A stretch of 64,000 nt of DNA from an uncultured Candidatus Saccharibacteria bacterium (GTDB lineage Bacteria; Patescibacteriota; WWE3; UBA101185; UBA10185): positions 291,508-355,507 of the forward strand of contig CAYLVW010000001.1 of NCBI GenBank assembly GCA_964387275.1. Direction: 5' to 3'. Of this stretch, positions 2,078 to 53,725 are shown in pieces. The translations under genes and the position numbers were made by a program. Below the pieces are notes generated by a model that ran no database searches, was not told the origin of the DNA, and saw nothing but the letters and a program-made list of their open reading frames with translations. The stretch's first letter is position 1. Every line of letters starts with the position of its first letter.

Positions 2078-3088
2078 GTGAAATACCTTGCAATAGGGCT
2101 TTCACATGGAGTTGTCATGAAAAAGGTAGTCGTTTTTATCGGTAGTTTACTATTGGGTTTGGCTATGTTTATTTTTATTAGTATTCCCCAAGCTACGCCG
2201 AATTGTCTAGCGCTAAGTGTTGAGGAAGCTTCTGCTCAAGGTATTTTGTGTGAGGAGTCTCCGACTCCCCAAAACACTAATACCCCTGAGGATACAGCGA
2301 CCGCTGTTCCTACTGAGACACCTAACCCTACGGCTACAGCAAGTCCGTTGCCTAGCGCAACGAGTACTACTGAGCCAACAGTAACTAAGGAGTCTACAAC
2401 TACCCCTACGTTTACGAAATCACCAACCCCAGTAACTCCTACGGAAACTAGAGTTGTGATTTCTACTATTGAGGCGACACGTACCTCTACCCCAACTACA
2501 ACCCCCACACCTGTTGTGGTGGTTACACCTACCCCAACCCCCGTGGTCACGACTCAGACTCCAACGCCTGAGCCCACCCCTACTAGTCCTCCTGCTGAGG
2601 AGACACCTGTCCCAACTCCTACTGAGGAGGTTAAGATTCCGGTGACTCTTCCAGAAACGGGAGCTAGTGCTCAAATCAATGAGCCTAACGAAGATTGGGA
2701 AGTAATTGGTTCCATTACCATTTATTCAGGGGATAAGGTTTATCTGGTAGACGACATCTACAAAGCTCGCTTTACTTTGGGCTACGTCGATGGAATCTAT
2801 TCGGCTATTCCTCAGGTGCCCTCTGATGGCTTTGCCTACGATGGCAATGGCCACATTTATGGTCACCTAATCACTAAGAGTCGTTTCTTGAACCCTAAAG
2901 TCGGCTACACCGTTATCTTTATCCTGTACGGCGCAAGCCATACAATGGTTATTGATAACGTAGCTAAGACTGCCGGGTTTAATGGTTCTATGGAACCTAA
3001 CTCTCCTAATAATTTTGAGCTTGTGACGTGCTGGTGGGATGATGTTGCTGATGATTTTGGCGGTAACATTTTCTACCGGTTGAAGTAG
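2078..3088 (+). CDS. Sortase-like transpeptidase: N-terminal TM anchor, Pro/Thr-rich linker, C-terminal sortase-fold domain. An LPETG motif lies within its own linker. The start may be the internal Met at about 2117.
   Basis: The C-terminal region aligns by eye to S. aureus SrtA: NGHIYGH (His), PKVGYTVIF against KKGSMVYF, IDNVAKTAG against IRDVKPTDV, FELVTCWWDD against LTLITCDDY (catalytic Cys), and a downstream Arg in FYRLK. Confidence 0.5.
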   Translation: MKYLAIGLSHGVVMKKVVVFIGSLLLGLAMFIFISIPQATPNCLALSVEEASAQGILCEESPTPQNTNTPEDTATAVPTETPNPTATASPLPSATSTTEPTVTKESTTTPTFTKSPTPVTPTETRVVISTIEATRTSTPTTTPTPVVVVTPTPTPVVTTQTPTPEPTPTSPPAEETPVPTPTEEVKIPVTLPETGASAQINEPNEDWEVIGSITIYSGDKVYLVDDIYKARFTLGYVDGIYSAIPQVPSDGFAYDGNGHIYGHLITKSRFLNPKVGYTVIFILYGASHTMVIDNVAKTAGFNGSMEPNSPNNFELVTCWWDDVADDFGGNIFYRLK

Positions 3089-3132
3089 GTTGGTGGAGCA
3101 CAAGATCAAGTGCTCTAATTAAGGTGGGAAGT

Positions 3133-3205
3133 GGAGACAGTGCTAAAGAGAGTAGAATAGTAAACCTTTTAAGGTGAACATTCTATACACTCTTTCACTG
3201 TCTCC
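3133..3205. other. Long imperfect hairpin, about 73 nt: 10-bp perfect outer arms GGAGACAGTG/CACTGTCTCC, an inner stem, and a central ACCTT-TT-AAGGT hairpin. Possible terminator or structured RNA.
   Basis: The inverted repeats are read directly from the sequence downstream of the sortase-like gene. A second small hairpin, GAGCAC..GTGCTC, lies at about 3097-3117. Confidence 0.3.
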
Positions 3206-3414
3206 CTAACTAGTCTTTTAGTAATAACTAAAACTGAAGAGCTTAGCAGAAATGCTAAAAGCGAAACTAGTTTGATTATAAAACCGTTAATGTTAACAGA
3301 AATTAGCGAATTTCCGTACAAGCTTGTAGTTACTTATTACAGCAGAGGCGTAACTTTGGAATATTAACTAAAAAAAGATAATGTTATTATACCTATGTGC
3401 AGGGTGTTGTGGGT

Positions 3415-3915
3415 CTAAAATATAGTATCTTTTTTATTATCTATTGAAAACTTGAGTGTAAGGAAACTTGCCACGCCTGTAAGAACAACAGATAGGATTT
3501 TTGATATTTCGGCTAATATATCTGTATAAAAGAGTAAATTAAGTTTTTCTAAAATATAGTTCCAATCATGAATTACATTTTCTCCTCCAAATAGCTGCAG
3601 CTTCATATCTAATGCATCACCCATATAGATAGAAATATTCATTATGTTTTGAGCTAGCCAGAAAAGCAGAACTGAGCCTGAAAAAAAGTCTTTTCTTAAG
3701 AAGAAATAGCCAGCAAACAAGCTAGGTATAGCTATTTGAAATAGTGTCCCACCAAGTACACTTATAAATTCTCCTAACGGTGTCGTGAGTAGATGGCCCG
3801 CCTCGTGTACCAGGAAATTTATGCTGTTAAGCAATAAGAATTGCTCTGGAAATATTAAATAGTAAGAAAAAATAATAGTTAATAAGATAGATATCGCTGT
3901 TTTTATATATTTCAC
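3415..3915 (-). CDS. Polytopic membrane protein with an HEAGH (HExxH) motif; putative membrane zinc metalloprotease.
   Basis: There are about 5 TM helices. HEAGH lies in or near TM2 and GEF follows, the pattern seen in intramembrane/CPBP-like metalloproteases. Confidence 0.35.
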   Translation of the reverse strand: MKYIKTAISILLTIIFSYYLIFPEQFLLLNSINFLVHEAGHLLTTPLGEFISVLGGTLFQIAIPSLFAGYFFLRKDFFSGSVLLFWLAQNIMNISIYMGDALDMKLQLFGGENVIHDWNYILEKLNLLFYTDILAEISKILSVVLTGVASFLTLKFSIDNKKDTIF

Positions 3916-4020
3916 ATAAATATTCTACCAATATCTGTGTTAATTTTAGTAATTAAAGGATTGTATTTGTAAAATCTTGGAAACTCTACATTACTTTGTT
4001 AGTGTGTACAGTATGTATAA

Positions 4021-4248
4021 TTGTTTGTAGGAGGTATGCACATGTTTAATGTAAATGAAGGGAAAACAGATAGGTTAGTTAGAATAGTTTTGGGCGTTGT
4101 TGCATTATATTTTAGTTACTTTGTTTTTACAGATATTTTGCAATTGATTTCCTACATAGTTGCTTTTGCCGCATTGATTACCGGGCTGACCGGGTTTTGT
4201 GGTTTATACAAATTGCTTGGAATAAATACCTGTCCTATCAAGAAATAG
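4021..4248 (+). CDS. DUF2892 (YgaP-like) small inner-membrane protein.
   Basis: N-terminal xVNxGxxDRxVRIVLG, two TM helices, and a C-terminal GLTGFCGLYKLLGINTC motif characteristic of DUF2892. Confidence 0.6.
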   Translation: MFVGGMHMFNVNEGKTDRLVRIVLGVVALYFSYFVFTDILQLISYIVAFAALITGLTGFCGLYKLLGINTCPIKK

Positions 4249-4311
4249 GCTAAAAACTTACAAATAACTATTTGCAGTGATATAATCTGGCCATCTTGAG
4301 AGGGAGGACAC

Positions 4312-4698
4312 ATGAACATACTTGTTGGGAAATTTAAGGATGTTTTTGATGTTGCTAAGATTTTGAGGAGACATAGGGGGTGGATGCTCCTAGCTATGCC
4401 TCCGTTTCCTTTATATCCTCATTATAGAAAGCCTGATGTTTTAACTAGAGATGGTTATCACAATTCTTATAAATCTATTTTATACTGGCATGAAGATAGT
4501 ATTGCAAATAAGATCTTGGAGGCAGCTCAAACTCAAAACTTAGGCCGTGAGGTTATTAGGCGATACAGTGTTTACTCAACTTCATCTACATTATCCTCAG
4601 ACGACTTGCTAAAAAAACTTGCTTCCGGGTTGGAAGTAATTACTGTTATAGAAGAGGACTATGGCCAGAAACTCACGAAAGTAACTTTTGTCTATTAG
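4312..4698 (+). CDS. Hypothetical protein (128 aa), no recognisable domain.
   Basis: The ORF is followed by a clear intrinsic terminator. Confidence 0.35.
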   Translation: MNILVGKFKDVFDVAKILRRHRGWMLLAMPPFPLYPHYRKPDVLTRDGYHNSYKSILYWHEDSIANKILEAAQTQNLGREVIRRYSVYSTSSTLSSDDLLKKLASGLEVITVIEEDYGQKLTKVTFVY

Positions 4699-4718
4699 TA
4701 TAGTTTTGTAGCTATATA

Positions 4719-4758
4719 GCTGCTTTTTTGGAATTCTTAACCAAAAAGCAGCTTTTTT
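4719..4758 (+). terminator. Rho-independent terminator: GCTGCTTTTTTGG - 9-nt loop - CCAAAAAGCAGC, followed by a T-run.
   Basis: Perfect 12-13 bp stem followed by TTTTTT. Confidence 0.6.
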
Positions 4759-4903
4759 AGTTATAGCTTTTATTGTTACCACAGCTATATCTCCTCAGAA
4801 ATTCTATGTTAGTTTAGGTTACACCACATGGATATCAATATAAATTGACAGATATCGATGTATTCTGTTCTAATTATAGAAGTGTTTATTTTGAAAGACT
4901 CGC

Positions 4904-7165
4904 ATGAAAAATAAAAACGGTTTCGTTGATCCGCATTTAATGCTTATAGTTCTTATAGTTATGGCAGTTGTTGGTGTCGGCACAGTTGCTTATAACAAAG
5001 TTAATCCAGCAAATTTTAGTTTTTTAGGGGCATCATCTGGAACGTTGACTTACTCTGCAACTAAAACCAATTCAATCGGTGAGGAAGATGGGAATGCTTT
5101 TAATGTTATTCCTGTAGGTTCTCAAGGGTGGCTTGGTAATGGGGGCGGTACAGGTTATTTAGGTATAAGGTTTACAGGCGATAAATTGCCAAGTGGTGCA
5201 AAGATTAAGAACGCTAAGGTTTCTTTTACTTCCCCTAGTGATCAATGGATCCAACTAGATCTTGATATTAGAGGAGACGACGTCACAACTTCTGACCCTT
5301 TTTCCGACTCAAGAAGACCCTCTCAAAGACTTATGACTGATGCAGTAACTAAAGTATCAGAGAATGTAAAGTGGTCTAAAGGGAAAACATACAGCTATGA
5401 TGTAACAGATATTGTTAAAGAAGTTTTTAGTCAAAATTCTGAAGTAAGTACTGTCTCATTAATTGCTAAAGGTACAGGCAGTAACTGGTCGAGAAAGCAA
5501 ATTTCAAACACAAAAAATTCACCTAAACTTACAATTACATATGAACTTCCCAGTATGCCTACTCCAAGTGTGACATCTACACCTACACCAGTTCCCACAG
5601 TGACACCTGATCCTGTGCCAAGCGTAACACCAACTCCAACACCCACACCAAGTGCAACACCTACCCCAACACCTACGCATTCGCCAAGCATAACACCAAC
5701 ACCCGTACCAACAGTAACTTCTACTCCAACTCCTTTACCTACTCAAATTGGAGGTGTGTTTAATCCTGCAGCTGCTATAGCAGCTACATCCTACGGTATC
5801 TGGGATCCAGCTAATCCTCTATATCAAGGATCAGGCGATAAGATATACCCAATTTGTAGCAAGATAGCTCACGACAGCTATTTTGTTGTAGGCCCAGATG
5901 GTAAGAAATACCCAACTTGGCACCCGCCTATTGTAACGGATCCAACTACTGGTAAGCTTTGTTCTTTTGGGCATGAACATGGAAGAGATCCTTCAAAGTC
6001 CCTACTTTGGCAACAAGTTAAAGAATATTTCTACTACGATGCTAATAACAACGGAAGAATGGATGCGAATGAGGAAGCAGTGGCTGGATTACCTTTTGGT
6101 TATACCAATGAGCAATTTTCTGCTTATCATTCATCAAATCATAGTACAACTATGAGACACGAAGATCATGTTGGTCATAAAGTAGATTTTGCTAACGGTG
6201 AGGGTGAGATCGCTACACACCAGGAAAACAGCAGTACAACTAATGGTGTAAGAGTGGGAAGACTTGGCAACGGAGTTATGTCTAAATATACCGGTGTTAG
6301 GTGTTACTACCTTGCAAAACCTCACCAAGGTGTAAGTTCTGCAGATGCATTTACAAATAACGTGCACGAAGTTTTCTATTTTGCTAACTGTTGGGCAGAC
6401 AATTCGTCGTATAACCAGAAAATAAGTGTAGCTGTAATGATGCCGTTTGGGAAACCAGGGGGGTTTAATAAGTTTATGCCTCTGTGCGGAATTGAGAGAC
6501 GAGAAGATCCACAAGATTTTGTAAATATTGGAACTAATGCAATGAATGCTAACTACTTATCTGGTCCTGGGAACAGGGAGATAGTAAGCAGAGACTGTGT
6601 AGAGAGAGGAATCCTAGTTCCACAAGGACAGTTCTCTGGTAACTTTTATGAAGCTTGGCCTGCTTCTCTTCAAATTACTCGTTCTAACGGAACAAGTATT
6701 GCGTCTGGTATAAACCTTTTGTTTGATGTAGAAGACGCAAATAGATACTATGATCCGTCTAAGCCAAATAACTTGGGATATACAATGGATTTATGTTATG
6801 AAGAAATATCTGGCGGTAGAAGAGTTAGAGGTGGTGCTTGCGAATGGGCAACTAATTATAATACAGGTCCCTCGGTGCCTACTTCACAAAGAATAGCTTG
6901 GAACAGTCCAAGGTCAGGGTTTAAAGGTATTCATAGAGGAATGTACTTCATGCCTGCTGTAATTTCTAATGCAGGTGGCCCTGAGTATTGGTACTCAGAT
7001 CCTTATGGAAGAAATGCATCTGCTACACCATTTCCAGGCTCCATCAAGCAACAGATTAGTTCCAAGAATCTAAACTACTCCACTTTGATTAACGATTCCA
7101 TTGACCCTAGAGTTAATGATAGGATTCATGACGATGGAAACGGTTCTGTCTATGCTCCAAACTAG
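4904..7165 (+). CDS. Large secreted/anchored protein: N-terminal TM, a ~150-aa beta module (shared with the C-terminus of the 36827-38605 protein), a Pro/Thr/Val/Ser linker, and a ~480-aa C-terminal domain of unknown function.
   Basis: TM at residues 12-30; PT-rich linker at about residues 205-265. The N-terminal module aligns to the C-terminal module of ORF 36827..38605 ([14 protein letters not shown] against GDQWIQVDFELYGE; [15 protein letters not shown] against ISKGTGSQFGKKSVS). Confidence 0.5.
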
Positions 7166-10764: not shown

Positions 10765-10941
10765 AGATAAAAGTATTTTAACATCTCTGAGCATTTTTGA
10801 CTCAAAGCCGGTAAATATTAACAAAGCATATCTACTCGGTCAATTGGTAACATAGGTACAGACTCAGGCAGTTTTTATGTAATCTAACTATAGGGCATTA
10901 TCTTATTGTTACGGCAGCAATAAACCACTAGAATACTCTTA

Positions 10942-12708
10942 ATGAGTGCAACGAGATTAACAAACAAACAAATAGTAACCTATTTAAAAGAGACTCTAGC
11001 AGCGCTTGAGGTAACGGAAGCTAATAGATTTAGAGTTAGAGCTTACCAAAACGCTATATCTTCAATAGATGCTCTTACGTCAAGTGTTTACGATCTTTGG
11101 GAGAATAACAGGCTTTCAGAAATCGCTGGTGTTGGTGAAGGCCTTAAGTACGATTTAACGTCTCTTTTTGAGTCAGGTGGGGTTCCCGAACATGAGAAAC
11201 TCAAAAAATCCTTACCTCAAGGTATGTTTGAACTTATTGGGATTAGAGGTATTGGTGCAAAAAAAGCGTATAAATTAGCAAAGGCATTTTCTCTTGAGGA
11301 TAGAGCTTTAGCTCTTGAGAAGTTAAAGGAAGCGGCAGAAACGGGGAAAGTACAGATACTTGATGGTTTTGGTGAAAAATCAGAGAAAGATATTTTAGAG
11401 GCCCTTCTAGATTCTAAAAAGACAAAAAATGAAAAACCCAGACTTCTACTTATAAAAGCAGAGGAGGTTGCCGAAAGAGTTCTATCTTATATGAAGCTAT
11501 GCCCAAGCGTTATCGAAATTAATACTCTTGGATCTCTAAGAAGGAGGCAATCAACAGTAGGAGATTTAGATATAGCTGCATCCTCACATGATATTGAAAA
11601 AGTGCTAGGTTTTTTTGAAAAATTTCCGGAGATAGGTGAAGTTATTGCTAGGGGAGATAAAAAAATCCAGGCTGTTTTAAAAAATGATTTACAGATTGAC
11701 TTTAGAGTAGCAACTCCTAAAGCATACGGCGCTATGCTTCAATATTTTACGGGTTCAAAACAACATAATGTTCTATTAAGAACTTATTCTTTGGATAGTG
11801 GTAAATCCTTGTCAGAGTATGGGATTAAATATAAAAGTTCTCTTCATGAGTTTTCTACGGAGGCTGATTTTTATAGGTTTATCGGACTTCCATATATACA
11901 TCCAGAGCTTAGGCAAGGTAAAAACGAGATAGAACTTGCTCGAGGTAATAAACTCCCAAGCTTGGTACAACTCTCTGATATTAAAGGTGAAGTGCATACT
12001 CACACAACAAGTTCTGATGGGGAGAACTCGCTTGATGATATGACTGAGGTAGCAGCCTCCATGGACTACCAATACTATGGTATCTCGGATCATGCTCCAA
12101 GCGTTATATCAAGGGGATATGACGAGGTCGAAAAAATTATATACAACCACAAAACACAAATATCTATAAGACAGAAAGAACTTAAAGACTTAAAGTTACT
12201 TTTTGGCTATGAGGTAAATATTTTAAATGATTCCACACTGGGTTTGCCCGACTCTTTGCTTAAAGAATTAGACTATGTTGTGGCATCAATTCATACTTCT
12301 TTTAGTCAAGACAGGGATGTTATAACTGAAAGGCTTATAAAAGCAATTGAGAATCCATATGTTAATATAATCGGTCACCCGTCCGGTAGATTAATAAATG
12401 AAAGGATTGCTTGTGATATTGATTGGACAAAAGTATTTGATGCGCTTCTTTACAATGACAAAACAATTGAGATAAACTCCCAACCATCAAGGCTGGATCT
12501 TGCTGACGACTTAGTTAAAGAAGCAATTGGAAGGGGTATAAAAATTATTATAAACACAGACGCACACTCTACAAGAGATCTATCCTATATGAAGTATGGA
12601 ATCGATGTGGCAAGACGAGGTTTTTGCGAGGCAAGAAACATTGTGAATACTTTACCTTTGGACGATTTTTTGAGAGTATTGAAAGTACGTAATCAAAAAG
12701 AGAAGTAG
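10942..12708 (+). CDS. polX: DNA polymerase X family with a C-terminal PHP phosphoesterase domain.
   Basis: HhH GIGAKKA, Pol-beta nucleotidyltransferase motif GSLRRRQSTVGDLDI, PHP His cluster HTHTTSSDG. Confidence 0.8.
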   Translation: MSATRLTNKQIVTYLKETLAALEVTEANRFRVRAYQNAISSIDALTSSVYDLWENNRLSEIAGVGEGLKYDLTSLFESGGVPEHEKLKKSLPQGMFELIGIRGIGAKKAYKLAKAFSLEDRALALEKLKEAAETGKVQILDGFGEKSEKDILEALLDSKKTKNEKPRLLLIKAEEVAERVLSYMKLCPSVIEINTLGSLRRRQSTVGDLDIAASSHDIEKVLGFFEKFPEIGEVIARGDKKIQAVLKNDLQIDFRVATPKAYGAMLQYFTGSKQHNVLLRTYSLDSGKSLSEYGIKYKSSLHEFSTEADFYRFIGLPYIHPELRQGKNEIELARGNKLPSLVQLSDIKGEVHTHTTSSDGENSLDDMTEVAASMDYQYYGISDHAPSVISRGYDEVEKIIYNHKTQISIRQKELKDLKLLFGYEVNILNDSTLGLPDSLLKELDYVVASIHTSFSQDRDVITERLIKAIENPYVNIIGHPSGRLINERIACDIDWTKVFDALLYNDKTIEINSQPSRLDLADDLVKEAIGRGIKIIINTDAHSTRDLSYMKYGIDVARRGFCEARNIVNTLPLDDFLRVLKVRNQKEK

Positions 12709-44821: not shown

Positions 44822-45991
44822 TTATTCACTCAAAAGGTATAGATCTCCTTGTACAACCGGCTCTGATATAACCAATTGGCTAAAATCAACGCTAGAACTA
44901 CCACTACCCAAACTACCAAAGCCTAGAATAAAATCTCCATCAGAGCCTACAGTATGAACAGAGACATCTGTTATGGAAACAAACCTATCTCTCATATAAC
45001 CGATAAAAGCTGGGTGATGTACGTGCTTACCACTAATCCAAGCTTTAAACAAAGTTAGCCTTGATGCAAGATCAAGTACGGTCTCTTGACTCTCAATTGA
45101 AGACCAAGAAAACCTGGCTACTAACTCGCCATCTTTTTGAACTCTAATGGCATTTTGTAATACAGACTCTTCATAGTTACTCTCACCTATAGTAAGTGCT
45201 GGGTCTTCAAAAACAATCTCTTTAAGCACTTGAGATGCTTCATATTCTCTAAATAGAAGCGCTTCTACTTCGTAGTCACGTAATGGGAACTCAACATAGT
45301 TGGCTCCGGAACTAATCTTAAAGTAAGACGTACTACTCTCATTTGGTATTGATATTCCTACTCTCCATAATGCATCTGTAACTGTATTAGTGCTATCAGC
45401 AAGGCTGATCTGATAACGCAAAGTCCAGTCAGTTGGGCAAGTTATGTTGTCTGAAAACGGATCTGGAGACTCAACGTTACCTACATCTTCAAATAAAGTA
45501 GAGGCGTTGTAAGCAAAAGAATCTACCCACAACTTCTCACTAATACCCAAAGCCCTTCTAAGCTTACCATCGACAGATGAAGATACATCTGAAACAAAAC
45601 GTCTTTTTAGTTCCAAAAATTCCTCTAACCAATTAGTTTTTTCGCTATAGTACCCACTGGTATTAAAAGGGACAAAATAAAACTTGCTAACATAGATTTG
45701 ATCTGCATATAAAGCTTCCATTCTAACTAAACAGTTAATTGTTCTAACCCTGCTTAAATCGGCGACGCGCGATACACCATATGTGCCGTCTTTTGGATAG
45801 TTACCTTCTCTAATCTCGTAATAGTGCAGCCTCTCAGGCGTATCACATGAAGCTAATGGAAGAGAAAATAAAATGAACAGTAGTAAAGATAGAATCCTAT
45901 GTAGAGGGTTTCCAGACATTCTCGGTAACTTAATAGTAATTCCTACAATCCTACGTGCTAGATTCGAAAGCGTAGGGAATTTCTTACCCAT
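44822..45991 (-). CDS. Hypothetical lipoprotein (389 aa; lipobox LPLASC).
   Basis: Signal peptide and lipobox; no recognised domain. Confidence 0.4.
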   Translation of the reverse strand: MGKKFPTLSNLARRIVGITIKLPRMSGNPLHRILSLLLFILFSLPLASCDTPERLHYYEIREGNYPKDGTYGVSRVADLSRVRTINCLVRMEALYADQIYVSKFYFVPFNTSGYYSEKTNWLEEFLELKRRFVSDVSSSVDGKLRRALGISEKLWVDSFAYNASTLFEDVGNVESPDPFSDNITCPTDWTLRYQISLADSTNTVTDALWRVGISIPNESSTSYFKISSGANYVEFPLRDYEVEALLFREYEASQVLKEIVFEDPALTIGESNYEESVLQNAIRVQKDGELVARFSWSSIESQETVLDLASRLTLFKAWISGKHVHHPAFIGYMRDRFVSITDVSVHTVGSDGDFILGFGSLGSGSSSVDFSQLVISEPVVQGDLYLLSE

Positions 45992-46322
45992 TCGGCTCTC
46001 CTTTTCTAGGAACAGTTTAGCATAGTGTGAGGTTGTTTGAAATTATACTATTGAGCCGGATTTTTAAATGAGTATATGGTGAAGCATGTCGGTCTGGAAC
46101 CCCACCTTCGAAATTATACTCTCCAGGATGTAAATGGAACAAATGGGACACCTTAAAAAAAGAATGTCCCATTATTCTCTCCAGGTTACTTTTTTCTGCG
46201 GTTATGCTCTATTTCAGTAGTATTTGGATGTTTTTTAACGTAGCTCTTGGTTACAAACTGACCGTTTTTAGAGTTTCTGTTATTTGTTATCGTTTTACTT
46301 GGCATCGTAACTCACCCCCTTA

Positions 46323-46946
46323 TTATTCTCTAATAGGTACTCCCAAACTAGATGCTAAACTATCTTTACGCGCAATTTCATTTTTTCTTGATGAGATATA
46401 TTCGTTGATTTTATTATCCAGCGAGTTATTGTACCCACTTATTTCTCTGTTTAAGTGCCCAAGTTGAGTGATGGCACTAGATTTAAAGTGGTCAAATTCG
46501 CGCTTTATTTGGTCAGCATTTTCCGAAAAGACTTTAATATCAACACAAAGATCACTGTCGCAGATATATACCTCTTCAGTCCACATCAACCGTTGTTGTG
46601 AAGGTATGTACCTAAGAAGATTTGAATCACCTTTAACAGGAATATAATAGGTGACCATATTCTTCTTATAAATACGTCCAGGATGCGTGTAAAAGCTGCT
46701 TCCCAAATCCTCTGACGAAACTTCTACTTCTTTGACTGCTGCTTTGGCAGATTCCATATCAAACTCAGGTTTGTCTATAGTGAATTCTTTTAGGATCTCT
46801 TGTCTTTGCACATCAGACAGTCCGTCCAAAATCTGACTTTGCGGAAGACTATAAATTTTGTTCTTTAGCTCCATCAACTTTTGGTTGAAATATGAATCTA
46901 TTTCTTCCTCATTAAATATATTAAAACTATCATAATTTCTGTACAT
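46323..46946 (-). CDS. Hypothetical soluble protein (207 aa); second gene of the lexA-divergent operon.
   Basis: Abuts the upstream gene with a 1-bp gap. No TM and no recognised domain. Confidence 0.4.
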   Translation of the reverse strand: MYRNYDSFNIFNEEEIDSYFNQKLMELKNKIYSLPQSQILDGLSDVQRQEILKEFTIDKPEFDMESAKAAVKEVEVSSEDLGSSFYTHPGRIYKKNMVTYYIPVKGDSNLLRYIPSQQRLMWTEEVYICDSDLCVDIKVFSENADQIKREFDHFKSSAITQLGHLNREISGYNNSLDNKINEYISSRKNEIARKDSLASSLGVPIRE

Positions 46947-46947
46947 T

Positions 46948-47904
46948 TTAGTTTGTTCCTTCTGTTAATTTTGGTACTATTTCGTTCATTGTGTAATGAA
47001 CAAATTGCTTTCCTAGCTCTGTAAGTACGTACTCCTTTTCGTCGTCGAAAAAGCTTGCGTAAGTGGAGCTTCTTTGTATAACTTTTTTTCTTTGAGGTTT
47101 TACAAAATTACCGGAATAATCGGTTTCCCGATACTGGCGAATAACGTGACCCATGCTTAGGTCCTGTATAACAAGCTTGAATAAATCTGCCTCAGCGGAA
47201 TCCTCACGGACCCTTTGTCCATACATCAGGTCCCATATTCCAGCACGGGTGATACCAGATTTATTAAATATAGTTGATATAATCTTGAAGTGGAGTTCCG
47301 AATAAGCTTCAATCCAGTCGATAAACATGGATATCACGTCATCACTGCAAATACTTGTTGCCGCAGCATTTGACAGTAAATTTCTTACAAGAATCCGTTT
47401 TTCTTCACTCTCTGCTGCCGACCAGTCCCTAAATGCTTTTTTCAAAAGTTTCATATACTCGGGGCTTTCTAGTCTGATTCTGATTTTCTCATCGGTTTGG
47501 TCGACTCGTAGCATTATCTCTACTAAAGTTTTGCCTATTTCTTTAATTTCATCCTCTTGAAGTTTGAGCCAAATGTTAAAAAGTTTATTAAGATTACTTT
47601 GTTCATTTTCGGACCATGTGCTTCCTACAGCACCGATTAAACCTCCCGCATAGGGAATTGCTCCACCTACAGCGGCAAGTGCAAAGCGCGCTATCTTTGG
47701 ACCATTTCCAGCAGATAAAGCTGCATTTATTTCATCTTTCACATCATATTTTTTGTTTTCCTCGGTCGTCATGCCTATAATAATTCCTTCAAATAAAAAA
47801 TAAACCCATTTTCCTTTGGCTAAGGAATATGGGCAGTTACTTGCCACAATTAAATCGCAAAAATTGACCAGTGTCAATAATGTGTTAAAATACAAAGTAG
47901 ACAT
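46948..47904 (-). CDS. Hypothetical protein with an N-terminal Gly-zipper-like amphipathic/hydrophobic segment (AAVGGAIPYAGGLIGAVGS). The true start is probably the Met at about 47772 (MTTEENKKYD). It is divergent from lexA.
   Basis: The listed ORF runs to the lexA start codon. Using the internal Met leaves a ~130-bp shared promoter region containing palindromes. Confidence 0.4.
   Translation of the reverse strand: MSTLYFNTLLTLVNFCDLIVASNCPYSLAKGKWVYFLFEGIIIGMTTEENKKYDVKDEINAALSAGNGPKIARFALAAVGGAIPYAGGLIGAVGSTWSENEQSNLNKLFNIWLKLQEDEIKEIGKTLVEIMLRVDQTDEKIRIRLESPEYMKLLKKAFRDWSAAESEEKRILVRNLLSNAAATSICSDDVISMFIDWIEAYSELHFKIISTIFNKSGITRAGIWDLMYGQRVREDSAEADLFKLVIQDLSMGHVIRQYRETDYSGNFVKPQRKKVIQRSSTYASFFDDEKEYVLTELGKQFVHYTMNEIVPKLTEGTN
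47811..47891. promoter_or_regulatory. lexA/divergent-operon control region. It contains palindromes TTCCTT-N5-AAGGAA (47811-47827), GGCA-N6-TGCC (47832-47845) and TTGAC-cagt-GTCAA (47864-47877). The last overlaps a -35 (TTGACC) with an extended -10 (TGTTAAAAT) at 47883-47891.
   Basis: Inverted repeats and sigma70-like hexamers read directly from the sequence. Which one, if any, is the LexA box is not established. Confidence 0.4.
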
Positions 47905-48567
47905 ATGGCTACAAATGTAAAAACAGACGAAAAATTAAATAAAATTTGGCATTTTATCTCTCAATACCAGCAAGAACACGGTTATTCTCCTAGTTATGCT
48001 GAACTTGCAACTGTTGCAGAAGTAACTTCCAAACGTGGCGTAAGCATTCAGTTGAAAAAATTAGAAGCTAAAAAGCTAATATCCCGCACTAGTAATTCTC
48101 GCAGGGCTATTAAAATTCTGGAAAAACCATCGGGAGAAAATGCCACTGACAGTGTTACAGTAAAAATTCCTATCCTAGGGGAGGTTGTGGCCGGAGTTCC
48201 GAGGTATGCTGAGCAAAATGTCGAAGGATATCTTTCCGTTTCTCTTGCTGAGACCCATGGAACTAAGGATGCATTTTTGCTAAAGATTGACGGAAATAGC
48301 ATGAACAAGCTTGGATATGAAACAGGAGACTTTGCTATAGTAACACCTCAATCCACAGCTGTTAATGGCGATGTTGTAATTGCTTTTGACCCTGAGGAAG
48401 AAACCGCTACCGTAAAAAGATATAAAAGAGCGGATGAGTTTATATTATTAATTCCTGAAAGTTACGACCCAAAATTTAAACCAATAGTTGGCAATAGCTT
48501 TGTTATTCAAGGTAAAGTTGTAGGTAGAATTCCTAAGGAAAATGCTGTTTTTGTAGACGAGGAGTAG
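47905..48567 (+). CDS. lexA: LexA repressor (winged-HTH LexA DNA-binding domain plus S24 autopeptidase).
   Basis: GYSPSYAELA / RAIKIL in the N-terminal domain; VVAGVP, GNSMNKLGYETGDFAIV (Ser) and ATVKRYK (Lys) in the C-terminal domain. Confidence 0.8.
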   Translation: MATNVKTDEKLNKIWHFISQYQQEHGYSPSYAELATVAEVTSKRGVSIQLKKLEAKKLISRTSNSRRAIKILEKPSGENATDSVTVKIPILGEVVAGVPRYAEQNVEGYLSVSLAETHGTKDAFLLKIDGNSMNKLGYETGDFAIVTPQSTAVNGDVVIAFDPEEETATVKRYKRADEFILLIPESYDPKFKPIVGNSFVIQGKVVGRIPKENAVFVDEE

Positions 48568-48816
48568 TGTCTATTCCCACTAGAAATGTCTAAGTTGCAA
48601 AAACAGAGCAGTAGACCTATCATATACTTGTATTGAAAACCAAATAGTTCGCATTTGTGCGATCCGAGCTGTACTCGTTAAAGGACTGTAAATAAGAAAA
48701 GATAACCTTTTCTTTGGCATTACAGTCTTTTTTTGTGCTCGAAATGTCTTTTAAGAGAAGGTTATAACGTAATTGTTTAGCCTTCTTTTTTGGTTTTCAG
48801 AGGCAGAAAGGCTTAG

Positions 48817-50091
48817 ATGAAATTAAGTAATCTTAAAGTCGAGTATGTAGAGGTTAGTAAATTAAAGTATTGCGAATACAACGCAAGAACTTGGACAGAA
48901 AAGGCAACTAAAGACCTTACCGAAAGTATTAAACGTTTCGGAATTATTAGTCCTCTTTTGGTCAATAGTTCTATAGAACGTAAAAACATTGTGCTGGGTG
49001 GGAATTTTCGTCTGAAAATTCTCAATGATTTAGGTGTTAAAGAAACTGCGGTTATTTATTTAGACGTACCTGATATCGAAAAGGAACGTGAGCTAAACCT
49101 CAGACTCAATGCTAACACAGGAGATTTTGACTGGGAAAAACTGAAAAATTTTGATTTAGAACTCTTGCTAGATGTGGGGTTTGACGATTCCGGATTGTCG
49201 AAGATTTGGGACGCAAGTCTCGAAATTGAAGACGATGACATTGATCCCGAAACAGAAGCTGAAAGAGTAACAGAACCAAAAACTAAACTTGGCGATTTAT
49301 ACAAACTAAACGATCACTATTTACTTTGTGGGGATTCCCAAGACATTAATGTAGTTAAAAGGCTTGTAGGTGAAACGAAGATTGATCTTATAACATGCGA
49401 TCCCGTTTATAACATTTCGTACGATTACAATAAAGGATTAGGAAAAAAGAACAAGTATAGTGAAAGCGTTAATGACACCAGAACAACCGAAGAATACAAA
49501 CAATTCCTAAGTAGCACAGTCGCTAACGCACTAAGTGTATCAAAGCAAGATGTCCACGTCTTTTATTGGTGTGATCAAAAATATATCTGGCTAATTCAAA
49601 CACTCTTTTCGGTACATGGCTTGGATAATAAACGCGTATGCTTTTGGGTTAAGGGTCAGCACAATGTAGTCCCACAGGTAGCTTTTAATAAATGTTATGA
49701 GCCTTGTGTTTATGCAGTGCGCGGTACACCGTACTTAGCGGATTCAATCACAAATCTCAATGAAATATTAAATAAAGAAATTGGAACAGGTAATAGAGCT
49801 GTTGATGACATTATAGATATCTTTGATATTTGGTTAGCAAAGCGAGAATCAACCTCAGAGTACCAGCATGCAACCACAAAACCTATTACCCTGATGGAAA
49901 AACCACTGAAACGATGTTCAAAAGTGGGATCTAGCGTTTTGGATTTATTTGGTGGAGGTGGATCAACACTTCTCGCTTGCGAACAGCTTAAGAGAAAAGC
50001 TTTCTTATGCGAATTAAGTCCTGTGTTTTGTGACGTGATAATAAACCGTTGGGAAAGGAGGACAAATGGAAAAGCCGAACTTGTTAAATAA
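48817..50091 (+). CDS. ParB-like nuclease domain fused to a beta-class DNA methyltransferase (PF01555-like). Motif IV reads DPVY rather than DPPY.
   Basis: ParB N-terminus (arginine-finger region GGNFRLKIL); motif IV LITCDPVYNISYDY; AdoMet motif I VLDLFGGGGSTLLAC near the C-terminus. Confidence 0.65.
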   Translation: MKLSNLKVEYVEVSKLKYCEYNARTWTEKATKDLTESIKRFGIISPLLVNSSIERKNIVLGGNFRLKILNDLGVKETAVIYLDVPDIEKERELNLRLNANTGDFDWEKLKNFDLELLLDVGFDDSGLSKIWDASLEIEDDDIDPETEAERVTEPKTKLGDLYKLNDHYLLCGDSQDINVVKRLVGETKIDLITCDPVYNISYDYNKGLGKKNKYSESVNDTRTTEEYKQFLSSTVANALSVSKQDVHVFYWCDQKYIWLIQTLFSVHGLDNKRVCFWVKGQHNVVPQVAFNKCYEPCVYAVRGTPYLADSITNLNEILNKEIGTGNRAVDDIIDIFDIWLAKRESTSEYQHATTKPITLMEKPLKRCSKVGSSVLDLFGGGGSTLLACEQLKRKAFLCELSPVFCDVIINRWERRTNGKAELVK

Positions 50092-50863
50092 TGAGCTTAA
50101 AGTGTGGCAGTTAGGTGAACACCTACTTATTCAGGGAGATTCTACTAAGGCGGATACATTTGAAATACTTAACAGCTTGGGTCTAAGGGCTAGTTATCTT
50201 TTAAGTGACATACCGTACGGCGTTGCTTATACAGAAAGCAAAATAAGCTTTGGTAGAAATCCAAAGAAATCAAAAGATATCCAAAACGATGCGTATCAGT
50301 CACCAGATCAGTATAAAAATTTCTGTATTAAATGGTTAACAGCTGTAAAACCGTACATGGCAGATAAAAATGTTATCCATATTTTCAATTCTGACCGCAT
50401 GCTATTTTCGTTACACGACGCAATGCAAGAAAGTGGGTATAGATTTTCCCAGCTACTTATTTGGATTAAAAACCAAAGCGTTATTGGTCGGTTGGATTAT
50501 AACGTTCAACATGAATTGATAATTTATGGTTGGTTAGGCACACATAACTTCTATGGCTCTAAAGACAAATCAGTATTTTGTTACCCAAGACCACAGAGCA
50601 GTCCTTGTCATCCCACGACTAAACCTGTTGGGTTACTGCGCCAATTAATTCTTAATAGCTCGAGAGTAAACGATATAGTTCTAGATCCATTTATTGGTAG
50701 TGGTTCAACATTGTGGGCTTGTATAGACACACATAGAAGATGTGTTGGTGTTGAGATTGATAGTGAATATTGCAATTCAATAATTCAAAGATTTGAAAAA
50801 CTGACTGGCATAAAAACTAAAGAAATAAATTGCTTTGCAGAAAGGAGGTTAAATGACCTCTAG
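50066..50863 (+). CDS. Second DNA methyltransferase (PF01555-like); motif IV reads DIPY. It overlaps the upstream gene by 26 bp.
   Basis: Motif IV LLSDIPYGVAY; motif I VLDPFIGSGSTLWAC. Confidence 0.65.
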   Translation: MEKPNLLNNELKVWQLGEHLLIQGDSTKADTFEILNSLGLRASYLLSDIPYGVAYTESKISFGRNPKKSKDIQNDAYQSPDQYKNFCIKWLTAVKPYMADKNVIHIFNSDRMLFSLHDAMQESGYRFSQLLIWIKNQSVIGRLDYNVQHELIIYGWLGTHNFYGSKDKSVFCYPRPQSSPCHPTTKPVGLLRQLILNSSRVNDIVLDPFIGSGSTLWACIDTHRRCVGVEIDSEYCNSIIQRFEKLTGIKTKEINCFAERRLNDL

Positions 50864-51269
50864 CAAAGAGACGACAATTAAAGCAAGGCAAGATGCTGAA
50901 AAGGCACTGCTCATTGAACAGTTGAAAAAGACACCAATTATTTCAGTTGCTTGCGATAAAACAGGTGTGGGGCGCACTAGTTATTACAGATGGCGTGAAG
51001 AAGACAAGGATTTTGCTATAAAAGCAGACAAATCTTTATCAGAAGGAATATTGCTGATGAACGATATGGCTGAAAGCCAATTATTGTCTGCCATCAAGGA
51101 TGGAAATATGACGGCAATAATCTATTGGTTAAAACATAGGCACTCTGCTTACTCAACCAAGATTGAAATTGAAGGCAACATAAATACAAACTATGAACTT
51201 TCAGATTCCCAAAAGGAATTACTAAACAAAGCTATTAATTTAATTTTTAAGGAGGATTATGAATCTTAA
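50853..51269 (+). CDS. Phage terminase small subunit-like HTH protein.
   Basis: The HTH region ISVACDKTGVGRTSYYRWREED resembles TerS N-termini; it overlaps the downstream large subunit gene. Confidence 0.5.
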   Translation: MTSSKETTIKARQDAEKALLIEQLKKTPIISVACDKTGVGRTSYYRWREEDKDFAIKADKSLSEGILLMNDMAESQLLSAIKDGNMTAIIYWLKHRHSAYSTKIEIEGNINTNYELSDSQKELLNKAINLIFKEDYES

Positions 51270-52785
51270 AGAAATCGAACAAAATATAGTTACAGATAAA
51301 AAATTTCGTATTAATTTGACGCAAGAAGATTTTGCATGGTTTTTCACGACTTACTTTAGTGATTACATTGGTTACAAAATCGCACCCTTACACAAGCAAA
51401 TGTTCAAAATCATTACGGATAGTGATAAATCCCTATCCGTGTTTGTAACATTTCGTGGATCAGGCAAGTCTACAATTCTTTCTTTAGCGTATCCAATATG
51501 GTCAATATTGGGAAAGCCTGGGAAGAAACACATAATTATTTGTAGTTACACGCAACCTCAAGCCAAACTAATATTAGAAAATATTAAGACTGAGCTTGAG
51601 AAAAATGAGCTTCTCATTCATGACTACGGTAAGTTTCAATATAGTGACGACTTGTGGAGAGCTGATACATTAGTTTTACCAAAATACGACGCAAGAATAT
51701 CAATTGCTTCTGTTGGTACGAGTATTAGAGGTGTACGACATGGAAAATATAGACCTGATCTTGTTATTCTTGACGATGCAGAGAGCTTGGAATCCGTGGA
51801 AACACTGGAAGGTCGCGATAGGGTTACTCATTGGTTAGAAAGAGATTTAATACCAGCAGGTGATAAAAACACACGCATTATAGTTTTAGGTAACTTGCTA
51901 CATAACGATGACCTAATTAATAGACTAATTAAGCGTGTTGATAACGAACAGTTAAGTGGGGATTACATGCGAGTGCCACTTATCGACGATAATGAAAAAA
52001 TAACATGGAAGGGTAAATATTCTGACATGACCGCTATAACTAGAGAAAAACTCCGTATTGGCGATGATAGGGCCTTTCGCAGAGAATATCTGCTCCAAAT
52101 AATTCCAGAAGATGAACAAATCATAACTGAGGATATGCTTACCTACTACGACGAGCTACCTGAGGCAAAATATAGGGACGCGGGCTTATTGGCAGTTGAT
52201 TTAGCGATTTCCAAAAAAGAATCCGCGGATAACACCGCCATGCTTGCAGGGTATGTTTACAAGATTAAAGATACACAATATCTATATATTCTACCTTTGC
52301 TTGTTAACTCTAAGCTCAATTTCCACGAAGCTGTAGATAAAGCAGAGGAGTTTGCCAAATCTATGGAAACAGGTAAGGCGACGCACATATATTCGGAAAG
52401 TGTTGGGTACCAATCTGCATTCATTGAGGAACTACTAAAGGATAGTTTTAATAATGCAGAAGGATTTGAGATTATGGGTAATGACAAAAGATCTAGATTA
52501 TCTACGACAGTACATCCGCTTAGCCAAGGGCGTGTCTTATTTCCTAAGAAGGGCTTAGATTTACTAAAAACACAGCTTTATGGCTTTGGCGTGGAGAAAC
52601 ACGACGATCTAGCGGACGCTTTTTCTATGCTCGTTATGAAAGGCTTAAATAATAAGTTTGGTTACGTTGACGCTATAGCTGTTCCATTTATTGACGGTAG
52701 AGAACGACTTTTGCCAAGTTTCGACGACGACAGTGGTTATCGTAGACGTGGGTTTTCTAGGTTCAGTATTCAGTTTCCTAGTTAA
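51259..52785 (+). CDS. Phage terminase large subunit (ATPase plus RNase-H-like nuclease).
   Basis: Walker A FRGSGKST, Walker B LVILDDAES, and nuclease Asp residues VDLAIS / HDDLADAF. Confidence 0.75.
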   Translation: MNLKEIEQNIVTDKKFRINLTQEDFAWFFTTYFSDYIGYKIAPLHKQMFKIITDSDKSLSVFVTFRGSGKSTILSLAYPIWSILGKPGKKHIIICSYTQPQAKLILENIKTELEKNELLIHDYGKFQYSDDLWRADTLVLPKYDARISIASVGTSIRGVRHGKYRPDLVILDDAESLESVETLEGRDRVTHWLERDLIPAGDKNTRIIVLGNLLHNDDLINRLIKRVDNEQLSGDYMRVPLIDDNEKITWKGKYSDMTAITREKLRIGDDRAFRREYLLQIIPEDEQIITEDMLTYYDELPEAKYRDAGLLAVDLAISKKESADNTAMLAGYVYKIKDTQYLYILPLLVNSKLNFHEAVDKAEEFAKSMETGKATHIYSESVGYQSAFIEELLKDSFNNAEGFEIMGNDKRSRLSTTVHPLSQGRVLFPKKGLDLLKTQLYGFGVEKHDDLADAFSMLVMKGLNNKFGYVDAIAVPFIDGRERLLPSFDDDSGYRRRGFSRFSIQFPS

Positions 52786-53062: not shown

Positions 53063-53725
53063 GTGTCAATTAAAAAATGTAAATATTGTCAAACTGATAT
53101 AGATCAAAAAGCGAAAATTTGTCCAAACTGTAAAAAGGATCAAAGAATTTGGTTTGCAAAACATCCTATCCTAACAGCAATACTAGTATTGTTCGTTATC
53201 GGTATCATATCTTCATCAGGAGATTCATCTAGTAAATTTACTACTGAAGGCGGATCAAAACCTACAACTACGGATACTTCTACAAAAACAACTCCTGAAA
53301 AACAGGCTGATACAGCTAAAACTGTAAAGCTTAACGAAGATTTACAGGTAGGAGATGTAAAGTGGAAGGTTATCAAGGCACGAACTGCTGACCAACTTAC
53401 TGATTATTCAGGAGCAGTTAAACCTGCAGGTAAGTTCCTTATAGTTAATGTTGTCGTGGAGAACATGGGCAAAGACATGAAAACTGTAACTGGACTTAAG
53501 GTTGTGGATGATAAAGACCGCGAATTTACTTCATATAGTAAATCTTTTGGACTTCAGAACCTTGGAGCTGAATCGCTTTATGTTCTAAGTAACATAAATC
53601 CAAACGTACCTTTAACATTTGCTGATGTATATGAAATACCTGCCGATGCAAAAGGATTAAGACTTAAGGTTGGAGATCTGTCGCTACTTGGAAGTGAGTC
53701 TGGTTTGATAGACCTGGGTTTATAG
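53063..53725 (+). CDS. DUF4352-like extracellular domain protein with an N-terminal zinc ribbon and a TM anchor.
   Basis: CxxC-x9-CxxC, one TM helix, a Thr-rich linker, then a DUF4352-type beta domain (GKFLIVNVVVENMGKD...). Confidence 0.5.
   Translation: MSIKKCKYCQTDIDQKAKICPNCKKDQRIWFAKHPILTAILVLFVIGIISSSGDSSSKFTTEGGSKPTTTDTSTKTTPEKQADTAKTVKLNEDLQVGDVKWKVIKARTADQLTDYSGAVKPAGKFLIVNVVVENMGKDMKTVTGLKVVDDKDREFTSYSKSFGLQNLGAESLYVLSNINPNVPLTFADVYEIPADAKGLRLKVGDLSLLGSESGLIDLGL

Follow-up and report, generated by a model that had tools for sequence, protein, structure and literature searches.

What is encoded opposite lexA in this genome, and does LexA control it? The window analysed here, the whole 64,000-nucleotide stretch of contig CAYLVW010000001.1 from an uncultured Candidatus Saccharibacteria bacterium, contains a lexA gene (47905..48567, + strand) and, divergent from it, two genes that are referred to below as geneA (46948..47772, - strand) and geneB (46323..46946, - strand). 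A previous, sequence-only reading had compared this arrangement with the lexA/yneA-type loci, where an SOS-induced membrane protein inhibits cell division. The explanation favoured here, which is considered fairly probable, is a different one: the lexA locus would be a conserved socket for phage-defence cassettes, occupied in this genome by a new candidate two-gene system whose expression LexA would gate.

The slot opposite lexA holds different defence cassettes in related genomes

The open reading frame (ORF) at 47905-48567 encodes a genuine LexA of 220 amino acids. All of the hallmarks from which it had been recognised (GYSPSYAELA, RAIKIL, VVAGVP, GNSM and VKRYK) are present, and Pfam identifies an N-terminal winged-helix DNA-binding domain (LexA_DNA_bind, PF01726, E 3e-8, residues 13-68) and a self-cleaving S24 domain in the C-terminal half (Peptidase_S24, PF00717, E 5e-21). 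The cleavage site A96-G97 and the catalytic residues S132 and K171 are invariant across 21 sequences, comprising the window LexA and 20 aligned relatives. The protein scores 138.6 bits against TIGR00498, the NCBIfam LexA equivalog (cutoff 110.95), and its best solved-structure matches are full-length LexA throughout, with alignments that begin at residue 9-13; the initial identification is thus borne out on every count. The closest named relatives occur in Woesebacteria and Levybacteria, which places the genome among the Patescibacteria (Candidate Phyla Radiation, CPR). Scanning a genome collection for close LexA relatives returned two distant matches only, from Rokubacteria and Planctomycetota.

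Close relatives of this LexA were placed on their contigs, giving a survey of the divergent slot at 14 patescibacterial lexA loci. The LexA proteins of two of these, L009 and L010, are 95% and 85% identical to that of the window, and the 125-bp intergenic regions of both hardly deviate from that of the window, although they are followed by different divergent genes. Homology of the window with L009 and L010, as determined by blastn, is limited to position 47780 onward and to 46076-46185, and the intervening cargo (46186..47779, - strand) has no homology to the cargo of either locus. The right boundary of the swapped cassette (47780..47790, - strand), where homology with both loci begins at 47780, includes the ribosome-binding site GAAGGAA (47784-47790), and the junction falls 7-8 nt 5' of the cargo start codon. 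On the left, a conserved flank of 110 bp (46076..46185, - strand) shows 84-85% identity to L009 and L010. Identity across the flanks amounts to 84-91% in L009 and 79-84% in L010, while the cargo is unrelated.

Opposite the lexA of L009 is a Thoeris system, consisting of ThsB_TIR and a transmembrane ThsA_Macro protein, in the place taken by geneA and geneB in the window. Cyclic oligonucleotide-based antiphage signalling systems (CBASS) occupy the slot in L010 (DUF2188, SMODS/AGS_C and SLATT_4), L011-13 (DUF2188, SAVED and SMODS), L047 (DUF2188, a four-transmembrane effector, a cyclase and an Mrr-type nuclease), L022 (a one-transmembrane effector, SMODS and E2) and L019 (SMODS and a membrane protein). 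The cargo comprises DUF2188 and PDC-M48B in L014, PDC-M50A and ThsB_TIR in L017, and the reverse transcriptase RT_UG13b of a defence-associated reverse transcriptase (DRT) system in L025, and is restricted to small unknown, DUF2188 or DUF1508 genes in L015, L016, L018 and L048. Known or candidate defence systems are therewith present in at least ten of the 14 slots.

The gene most often found first in the slot is DUF2188, which could be lexA's ancestral partner. The protein, of 79 amino acids, is encoded by the first or second gene divergent from lexA in L010, L011, L014, L018, L047 and L048, upstream of the variable defence cargo, and is absent from the window and L009; it may represent a core SOS gene of the lineage. 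The conserved left flank contains a terminator-like hairpin (~46142-46173), the direct repeat CCTGGAGAG[A/T]ATAAT, which occurs twice (46113-46127 and 46171-46185, minus strand), and a promoter-like TTGTTC-18-TATAAT sequence reading leftwards, towards a gene for a 389-amino acid protein (44822-45991). No Rfam match was found in the flank, with tRNAs being the only matches in the window. The 389-amino acid protein has a lipoprotein-like signal sequence and, since its counterpart in L009 is an unrelated 273-amino acid gene, its position may be a second variable slot.

The geneA-geneB unit

The product of geneB (207 amino acids) is a stand-alone version of the N-terminal module of PDC-S54, which it matches in PADLOC over profile positions 4-204 of 410 (E 6.1e-35). 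PDC-S54 is a candidate system only and is not mentioned in the literature that was searched. It is a single protein of ~410 amino acids with a nuclease-like C-terminal half; geneB, in contrast, ends at residue 207 without this half and is coupled to geneA. An exhaustive HMMER search gave 443 representatives of the geneB module, which are either ~200 amino acids long and stand alone or reach ~400 amino acids. Among the long forms, P0198 and P0301 carry a C-terminal TIR domain, while other relatives of ~400 amino acids have a C-terminal GKTDIL...ExK region that, as judged from its motifs, looks like a PD-(D/E)xK nuclease. The AlphaFold model of geneB (pLDDT 95.5) consists of an alpha/beta core and a C-terminal helix of 57 residues and has no match in the PDB. 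GeneA was considered as the missing C-terminal half of PDC-S54 and rejected (hhalign probability 0.3%).

For geneA, the mechanically called ORF (46948-47904) is over-extended: 31 homologues (269-303 amino acids) align from MTTEENK, so the gene is taken to be 46948-47772, coding for 274 amino acids. The Gly-zipper-like hydrophobic segment that had been pointed out near the N-terminus is indeed present, as a Gly/Ala-rich stretch at approximately residues 28-52 (AAVGGAIPYAGGLIGAVGS). Its Kyte-Doolittle maximum over 19 residues is 1.63 (mean over the homologues 1.78), making it borderline as a transmembrane segment, and the protein may be membrane-anchored. The remainder is predicted to form a helical body and a C-terminal winged helix (pLDDT 70.7), the latter weakly resembling histone H1/H5 and MarR/PadR, and the N-terminal 53 residues, including the Gly-rich segment, are modelled at low confidence. 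Neither geneA nor geneB matches any Pfam family, LysM included, at E < 0.01, and no CD-NTase/SMODS cyclase and no ThsB TIR and ThsA domains are found in either protein. The geneA family is highly conserved and has more than 3000 homologues, the best matches (~60-68% identity) being from CPR and Bdellovibrionota; none is annotated, none occurs on a plasmid and only one is on a viral contig.

Members of this family are mostly found away from lexA, and no lexA gene is present in the 12-kb locus of any of the seven geneA-homologue contexts that were read outside this genome. The homologue in L004 is the last gene of a CBASS operon, beside AbiGi, while that in L005 is located directly 3' of a HEPN/Hypoth_Ymh gene, a HEPN-like partner that overlaps it, with recombinase and AbiEii genes nearby. 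Solitary homologues are found in L043-L046, and also in L002/L003, where the neighbour is a convergent DUF4145 gene with a weak PD-T7-4 match. In L041/L042, a PDC-S54-type protein of 217 amino acids (E 1.3e-18) is encoded upstream of the geneA homologue and overlaps it by 8 nt, with the gene order reversed relative to the window. This independent recurrence of the geneA-geneB pairing speaks for the two genes working as a unit, and in the window the geneA stop and geneB start codons are joined as TAAAATG, indicating translational coupling. The earlier description of the divergent genes as a two-gene operon stands, and neither product has a Pfam match, but geneB does match the candidate family PDC-S54. 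A further geneB-like gene, in P0122, is followed by an ORF of 204 amino acids and is uninformative on the linkage to geneA. The geneB-like/geneA pair of L041/L042, which belong to another CPR genome, is preceded by genes for a 945-amino acid protein (HATPase_c_3, Sigma70_r4 and DnaA_C domains, with a weak MzaA match) and a GIY-YIG protein (2184-6834), and the four genes may together form a larger defence operon.

Promoters, palindromes and leader of the shared control region

The geneA start at 47772 leaves an intergenic region of 132 bp, close to the ~130 bp that had been given for the shared region, and the palindromes described there are present. The lexA promoter PlexA (47864..47891, + strand) combines TTGACC, a 16-bp spacer and a TG-extended TAAAAT, with the promoter scanner giving 10 of 12 matches and the TG present. 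It ends 13 nt from the lexA ATG, and a nearly leaderless lexA mRNA is predicted from this position. The PolX gene of the window (10942-12708) has a similar arrangement, with TTGTTA-17-TAGAAT (10900-10944) ending 7 nt ahead of the ATG, and its mRNA, like that of lexA, appears leaderless or near-leaderless, without a Shine-Dalgarno sequence. On the opposite strand, a putative divergent promoter, P(div) (47849..47877, - strand), was read by eye as TTGACA (47877-47872), a 17-bp spacer and TTTAAT (47854-47849), with transcription predicted to start at ~47842. Its -10 hexamer lacks the A at position 2 and it was not called by the promoter scanner. Equivalents in L014, L016, L017 and L019, likewise read by eye, combine TTGACA, TTGAAA or TTGCTT with TATAAA. 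In every lineage, the lexA promoter and the divergent promoter are interleaved over 37-56 bp. Their -35 regions overlap, and with this layout it is plausible that both are repressed together. The compact control region and possible co-regulation proposed for the locus are upheld to this extent.

The palindrome TTGAC-cagt-GTCAA (TTGACCAGTGTCAA, or TTGACcagtGTCAA; 47864-47877), which overlaps the lexA -35 region and had been put forward as a LexA box, is made up by the -35 hexamers of the two promoters, which stand back to back as TTGACC (plus strand) and TTGACA (minus strand). Allowing up to one mismatch, the window has two copies of TTGAC-N4-GTCAA where 2.27 are expected, so that the motif is not over-represented, and the exact copy is unique. 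In L011, where LexA is 60% identical, TTGATGTCAA takes its place and the spacing differs. The palindrome is not retained in more distant relatives, and in the window no copy precedes the PolX or the PolA gene. The proposal that this palindrome is the LexA box is therefore not sustained. The second palindrome, TCGCA-tttg-TGCGA (TCGCATTTGTGCGA, or TCGCAtttgTGCGA; 48649-48662), is located where it had been reported, in the 3' region of lexA, but its supposed likeness to the first does not hold, as the two have no half-site in common. In L009, TCGCAtttgTGCGA is changed to TCGCGttcgCGCGA, a compensatory double change from TCGCA/TGCGA to TCGCG/CGCGA, which identifies the element as a small hairpin rather than an operator. 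Both TTGAC-N4-GTCAA and TCGCA-N4-TGCGA were rejected as recurring boxes.

The strongest candidate for the operator of LexA autoregulation is instead the dyad GTAG-ACATATGG-CTAC (GTAGACATATGGCTAC; 47897-47912), which spans the lexA start codon. An rGTAn-N8-nTACy dyad is found across the lexA start in the same register and spacing in L010, L011, L047 and L019, while dyads resembling GTGGTAG-N4/6-CTACCAC occur just 5' of the lexA ATG in other lineages. Dyads with GTA or GGT arms are present in five of eight independent lineages, against 1.7 in shuffles (P ~0.018, post-hoc). The position of the dyad favours autoregulation over control of the cargo. A brute-force dyad search over 11 lexA promoters was dominated by AT-rich patterns and yielded no motif common to all. 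The sequence-only reading had considered the LexA box of this lineage undefined; the lineage is, however, that of the Patescibacteria, the SOS network of which has been the subject of a comparative study (Sanchez-Osuna et al. 2017, Environ Microbiol, in the reference list of PMC8565304). GTAG-N8-CTAC occurs six times in the window (15846, 22372, 25120, 31304, 47508 and 47897), against 0.69 expected from shuffles. The copies other than that at the lexA start are all intragenic, one being inside geneA and one 35-50 nt into a thymidylate kinase gene.

P(div) is separated from the ribosome-binding site of geneA by a leader (47791..47833, - strand) with a 12-bp stem (47805-47833) followed by UUUAUUUUUU. 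Leaders with a hairpin and U-run occur at the same position in ten of the 14 lexA loci, with differing stem sequences, so a promoter-proximal terminator, attenuator or 5' stabiliser appears to be a conserved feature of the frame; from its structure, the window hairpin looks like a terminator or attenuator, if not a 5' stabiliser. The imperfect palindrome GGCAGTTACTTGCC (47832-47845) is located at the predicted P(div) transcription start, and in most relatives an ACTGCC motif is found ahead of the leader hairpin. GGCAGT/ACTGCC was rejected as a regulon motif, with 27 copies, five of them intergenic, and no clear enrichment. On the other side, lexA is followed by an intrinsic terminator (48680..48737, + strand), with nested stems of 12 bp and 8 bp and then TTTTTTT, which is 100% conserved in L009, and by a second hairpin (48753-48789).

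LexA as a possible gate to the cassette

Under the favoured explanation, the right side of the socket's fixed frame would be formed by lexA, PlexA, the divergent promoter that stands back to back with it, and the leader with its ribosome-binding site and terminator-like hairpin; the left side would be the 110-bp element, which also has a terminator-like hairpin. Cargo would probably be exchanged by recombination between these flanks. LexA would keep the shared control region repressed until RecA is activated by DNA damage or phage replication. Self-cleavage of LexA at A96-G97 would then raise transcription from the divergent promoter, and read-through of the leader hairpin would allow expression of the translationally coupled geneA and geneB, the products of which would arrest or kill the infected cell. 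GeneB could serve as the sensor or scaffold module, which elsewhere is fused to TIR or PD-(D/E)xK-like domains, and geneA as its probable partner or effector, possibly membrane-anchored and bearing a winged helix. The analysis shows the identity of LexA, the structure of the operon, the boundaries of the cassette, the defence genes that fill the slot in relatives and the recurring geneA-geneB pairing, whereas control of the cargo by LexA, the part played by the hairpin and the way in which the two proteins act are inferred.

Downstream of lexA is a block of four genes (48817-52785) coding for a ParB_N-methyltransferase, a methyltransferase and the terminase subunits TerS and TerL. The same block occurs in ~30 IMG/VR contigs (L049-L078), with TerL 37-45% identical, and the ORF listings of four long loci show no large, head-type ORF cluster after TerL. 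In L052 and L074 the ORF next to TerL begins with what was read by eye as a serine-recombinase-like motif, and very large ORFs come after it. The appearance of the block is that of a packaging module, either satellite-like or cryptic, and not that of a prophage. Distant LexA-like S24 genes (33% and 28% identity) are divergent from the ParB-methyltransferase/TerS/TerL block in L063 (3037-4444) and L074 (2484-4485), and the next genes appear TIR-like and ATPase-like, respectively, from their N-terminal sequences. On these features, L063 and L074 would show an S24 repressor paired with defence-like genes for a second time and independently. Directly after TerL in the window, a DUF4352 protein (53063-53725) has a zinc-ribbon-like N-terminal segment and weak PHROG similarity to Sie-like superinfection-exclusion proteins.

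Several observations weigh against a LexA-gated defence socket. The operator candidate at 47897-47912 is 20 bp outside the divergent -35, no LexA operator was identified within the divergent promoter, and the -10 hexamer of P(div) in the window (TTTAAT) is weak. GeneA has no PADLOC match, the predicted structures of both proteins match no known effector fold, and of the seven geneA contexts two (L043-44) are without recognised defence genes within the locus read and another (L002/L003) has only the weak PD-T7-4 match. Furthermore, the regions flanking lexA in these genomes vary on either side and carry many defence genes, so that a position in a defence island could explain the association without regulation. 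The alternative that follows, a purely positional hotspot where defence cassettes accumulate at lexA, alongside DUF2188, and are expressed constitutively from the divergent promoter, damped by the leader terminator, with LexA regulating only itself, is a real if lesser possibility. It would accommodate the methyltransferases, restriction-modification-like genes and terminase module downstream of lexA, the second variable gene beyond the left flank, and the location of the sole dyad conserved among the relatives, over the lexA start and outside the divergent promoter core. It accounts less well for the position of the junction, only a few bases from the cargo start codon and with the conserved promoter, leader and ribosome-binding site in front; this suggests that it is expression from this particular promoter that has been preserved. 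The interdigitated promoters are a second difficulty, since a repressor bound there would probably affect both.

The other two alternatives are less probable. LexA could sit at the top of a satellite-like element formed by the four-gene block, as its SOS-sensitive master repressor, with geneA and geneB as accessory defence cargo comparable to that of P4 and phage-inducible chromosomal island hotspots. The order lexA, ParB-methyltransferase, TerS and TerL is syntenic in the window, L009 (the contig of which reaches the ParB-methyltransferase and methyltransferase), L014 and L022, TerL is 42% identical where LexA is ~46% identical, and the spread of the block among viral contigs, the recombinase-like ORFs and the two LexA-like genes heading TIR-like or ATPase-like operons would fit such an element. 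The block is, however, present in only four of the 14 lexA loci and a LexA-like gene in two of the ~13 block loci with enough upstream sequence, while no recombinase was recognised at 38-54 kb of the window, where several ORFs are without a Pfam match; the protein moreover scores as a LexA equivalog, and its relatives are essentially absent from viral contigs. An element of this type is thus unlikely. Least probable is the yneA-type SOS effector, whether a membrane protein that blocks division once LexA is cleaved or an SOS toxin. Bacillus subtilis lexA/yneA-yneB-ynzC includes an SOS division inhibitor divergent from lexA, and the window resembles it in having a divergent operon, a short shared control region and a first product with a borderline transmembrane-like Gly-rich segment near its N-terminus. 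YneA, however, is a LysM protein of ~100 amino acids and a fixed regulon member, whereas geneA codes for 274 amino acids with a winged helix and without LysM or another Pfam domain, belongs to a large family that is found without lexA in all seven other contexts, and is coupled to a module of a candidate defence family that is elsewhere fused to TIR; in sister genomes with LexA 95% and 85% identical, the whole operon is swapped for Thoeris or CBASS. The slot position and the family evidence together make a defence role of geneA and geneB much likelier than a yneA-type division inhibitor, and that part of the sequence-only reading is not supported.

A LexA-gated socket would combine features of several known systems. 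CapH/CapP are damage-responsive HTH/metallopeptidase regulators that occur beside CBASS. CapW and BrxR, both of the WYL type, and DdaA are likewise DNA-damage-responsive regulators located beside defence systems, among them CBASS and BREX (PMC9122588, PMC9122589, PMC12392091). As in all of these, a damage- or single-stranded DNA-responsive regulator here adjoins, divergently, CBASS or other defence operons; the regulators in those cases are dedicated WYL, HTH/metallopeptidase or activator proteins, whereas the neighbour here is a canonical LexA, with winged-helix and S24 domains, as a putative regulator of the cargo. No link between Patescibacteria LexA and CBASS was found in the literature searched. 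P2/P4 hotspots and chromosomal defence islands harbour unrelated defence systems between conserved flanks, and the slot resembles them in holding such systems at the same position in related genomes. Its flanks differ: one is a regulator gene together with its promoter and leader, the other a non-coding element of 110 bp. The junction at the ribosome-binding site or start codon indicates that the frame supplies the expression signals. Integrons express promoterless cassettes from a fixed promoter and have a LexA-controlled integrase, and they share with the slot the exchangeable cassettes, fixed promoter and SOS link. An integron was nevertheless rejected, as there is no integrase among the annotated genes adjoining the slot and no attC-like repeat array, and the window contains the left-flank element only once.

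The furthest-reaching interpretation, offered tentatively, is that LexA is a gatekeeper of innate immunity in Patescibacteria, with the divergent promoter and attenuator leader forming a dedicated socket into which operons are plugged at the start codon, so that LexA cleavage induced by phage or by damage would arm whichever CBASS, Thoeris, DRT or new system is installed, geneA and geneB being a new two-component system of this kind. The GTAG-N8-CTAC dyad provides a testable candidate LexA operator for the clade, and the geneA family, with its more than 3000 unannotated members, and the PDC-S54 N-terminal module are nominated as defence components. The frame of lexA, promoter, hairpin leader, slot and 110-bp flank furthermore offers a positional probe for new defence systems in CPR metagenomes, in bacteria whose phage defence and gene regulation have hardly been explored. 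If LexA does gate the slot, this would be the first case known to us in which interchangeable CBASS, Thoeris or DRT cassettes are wired to the canonical SOS repressor and not to a dedicated regulator of the WYL or CapH type.

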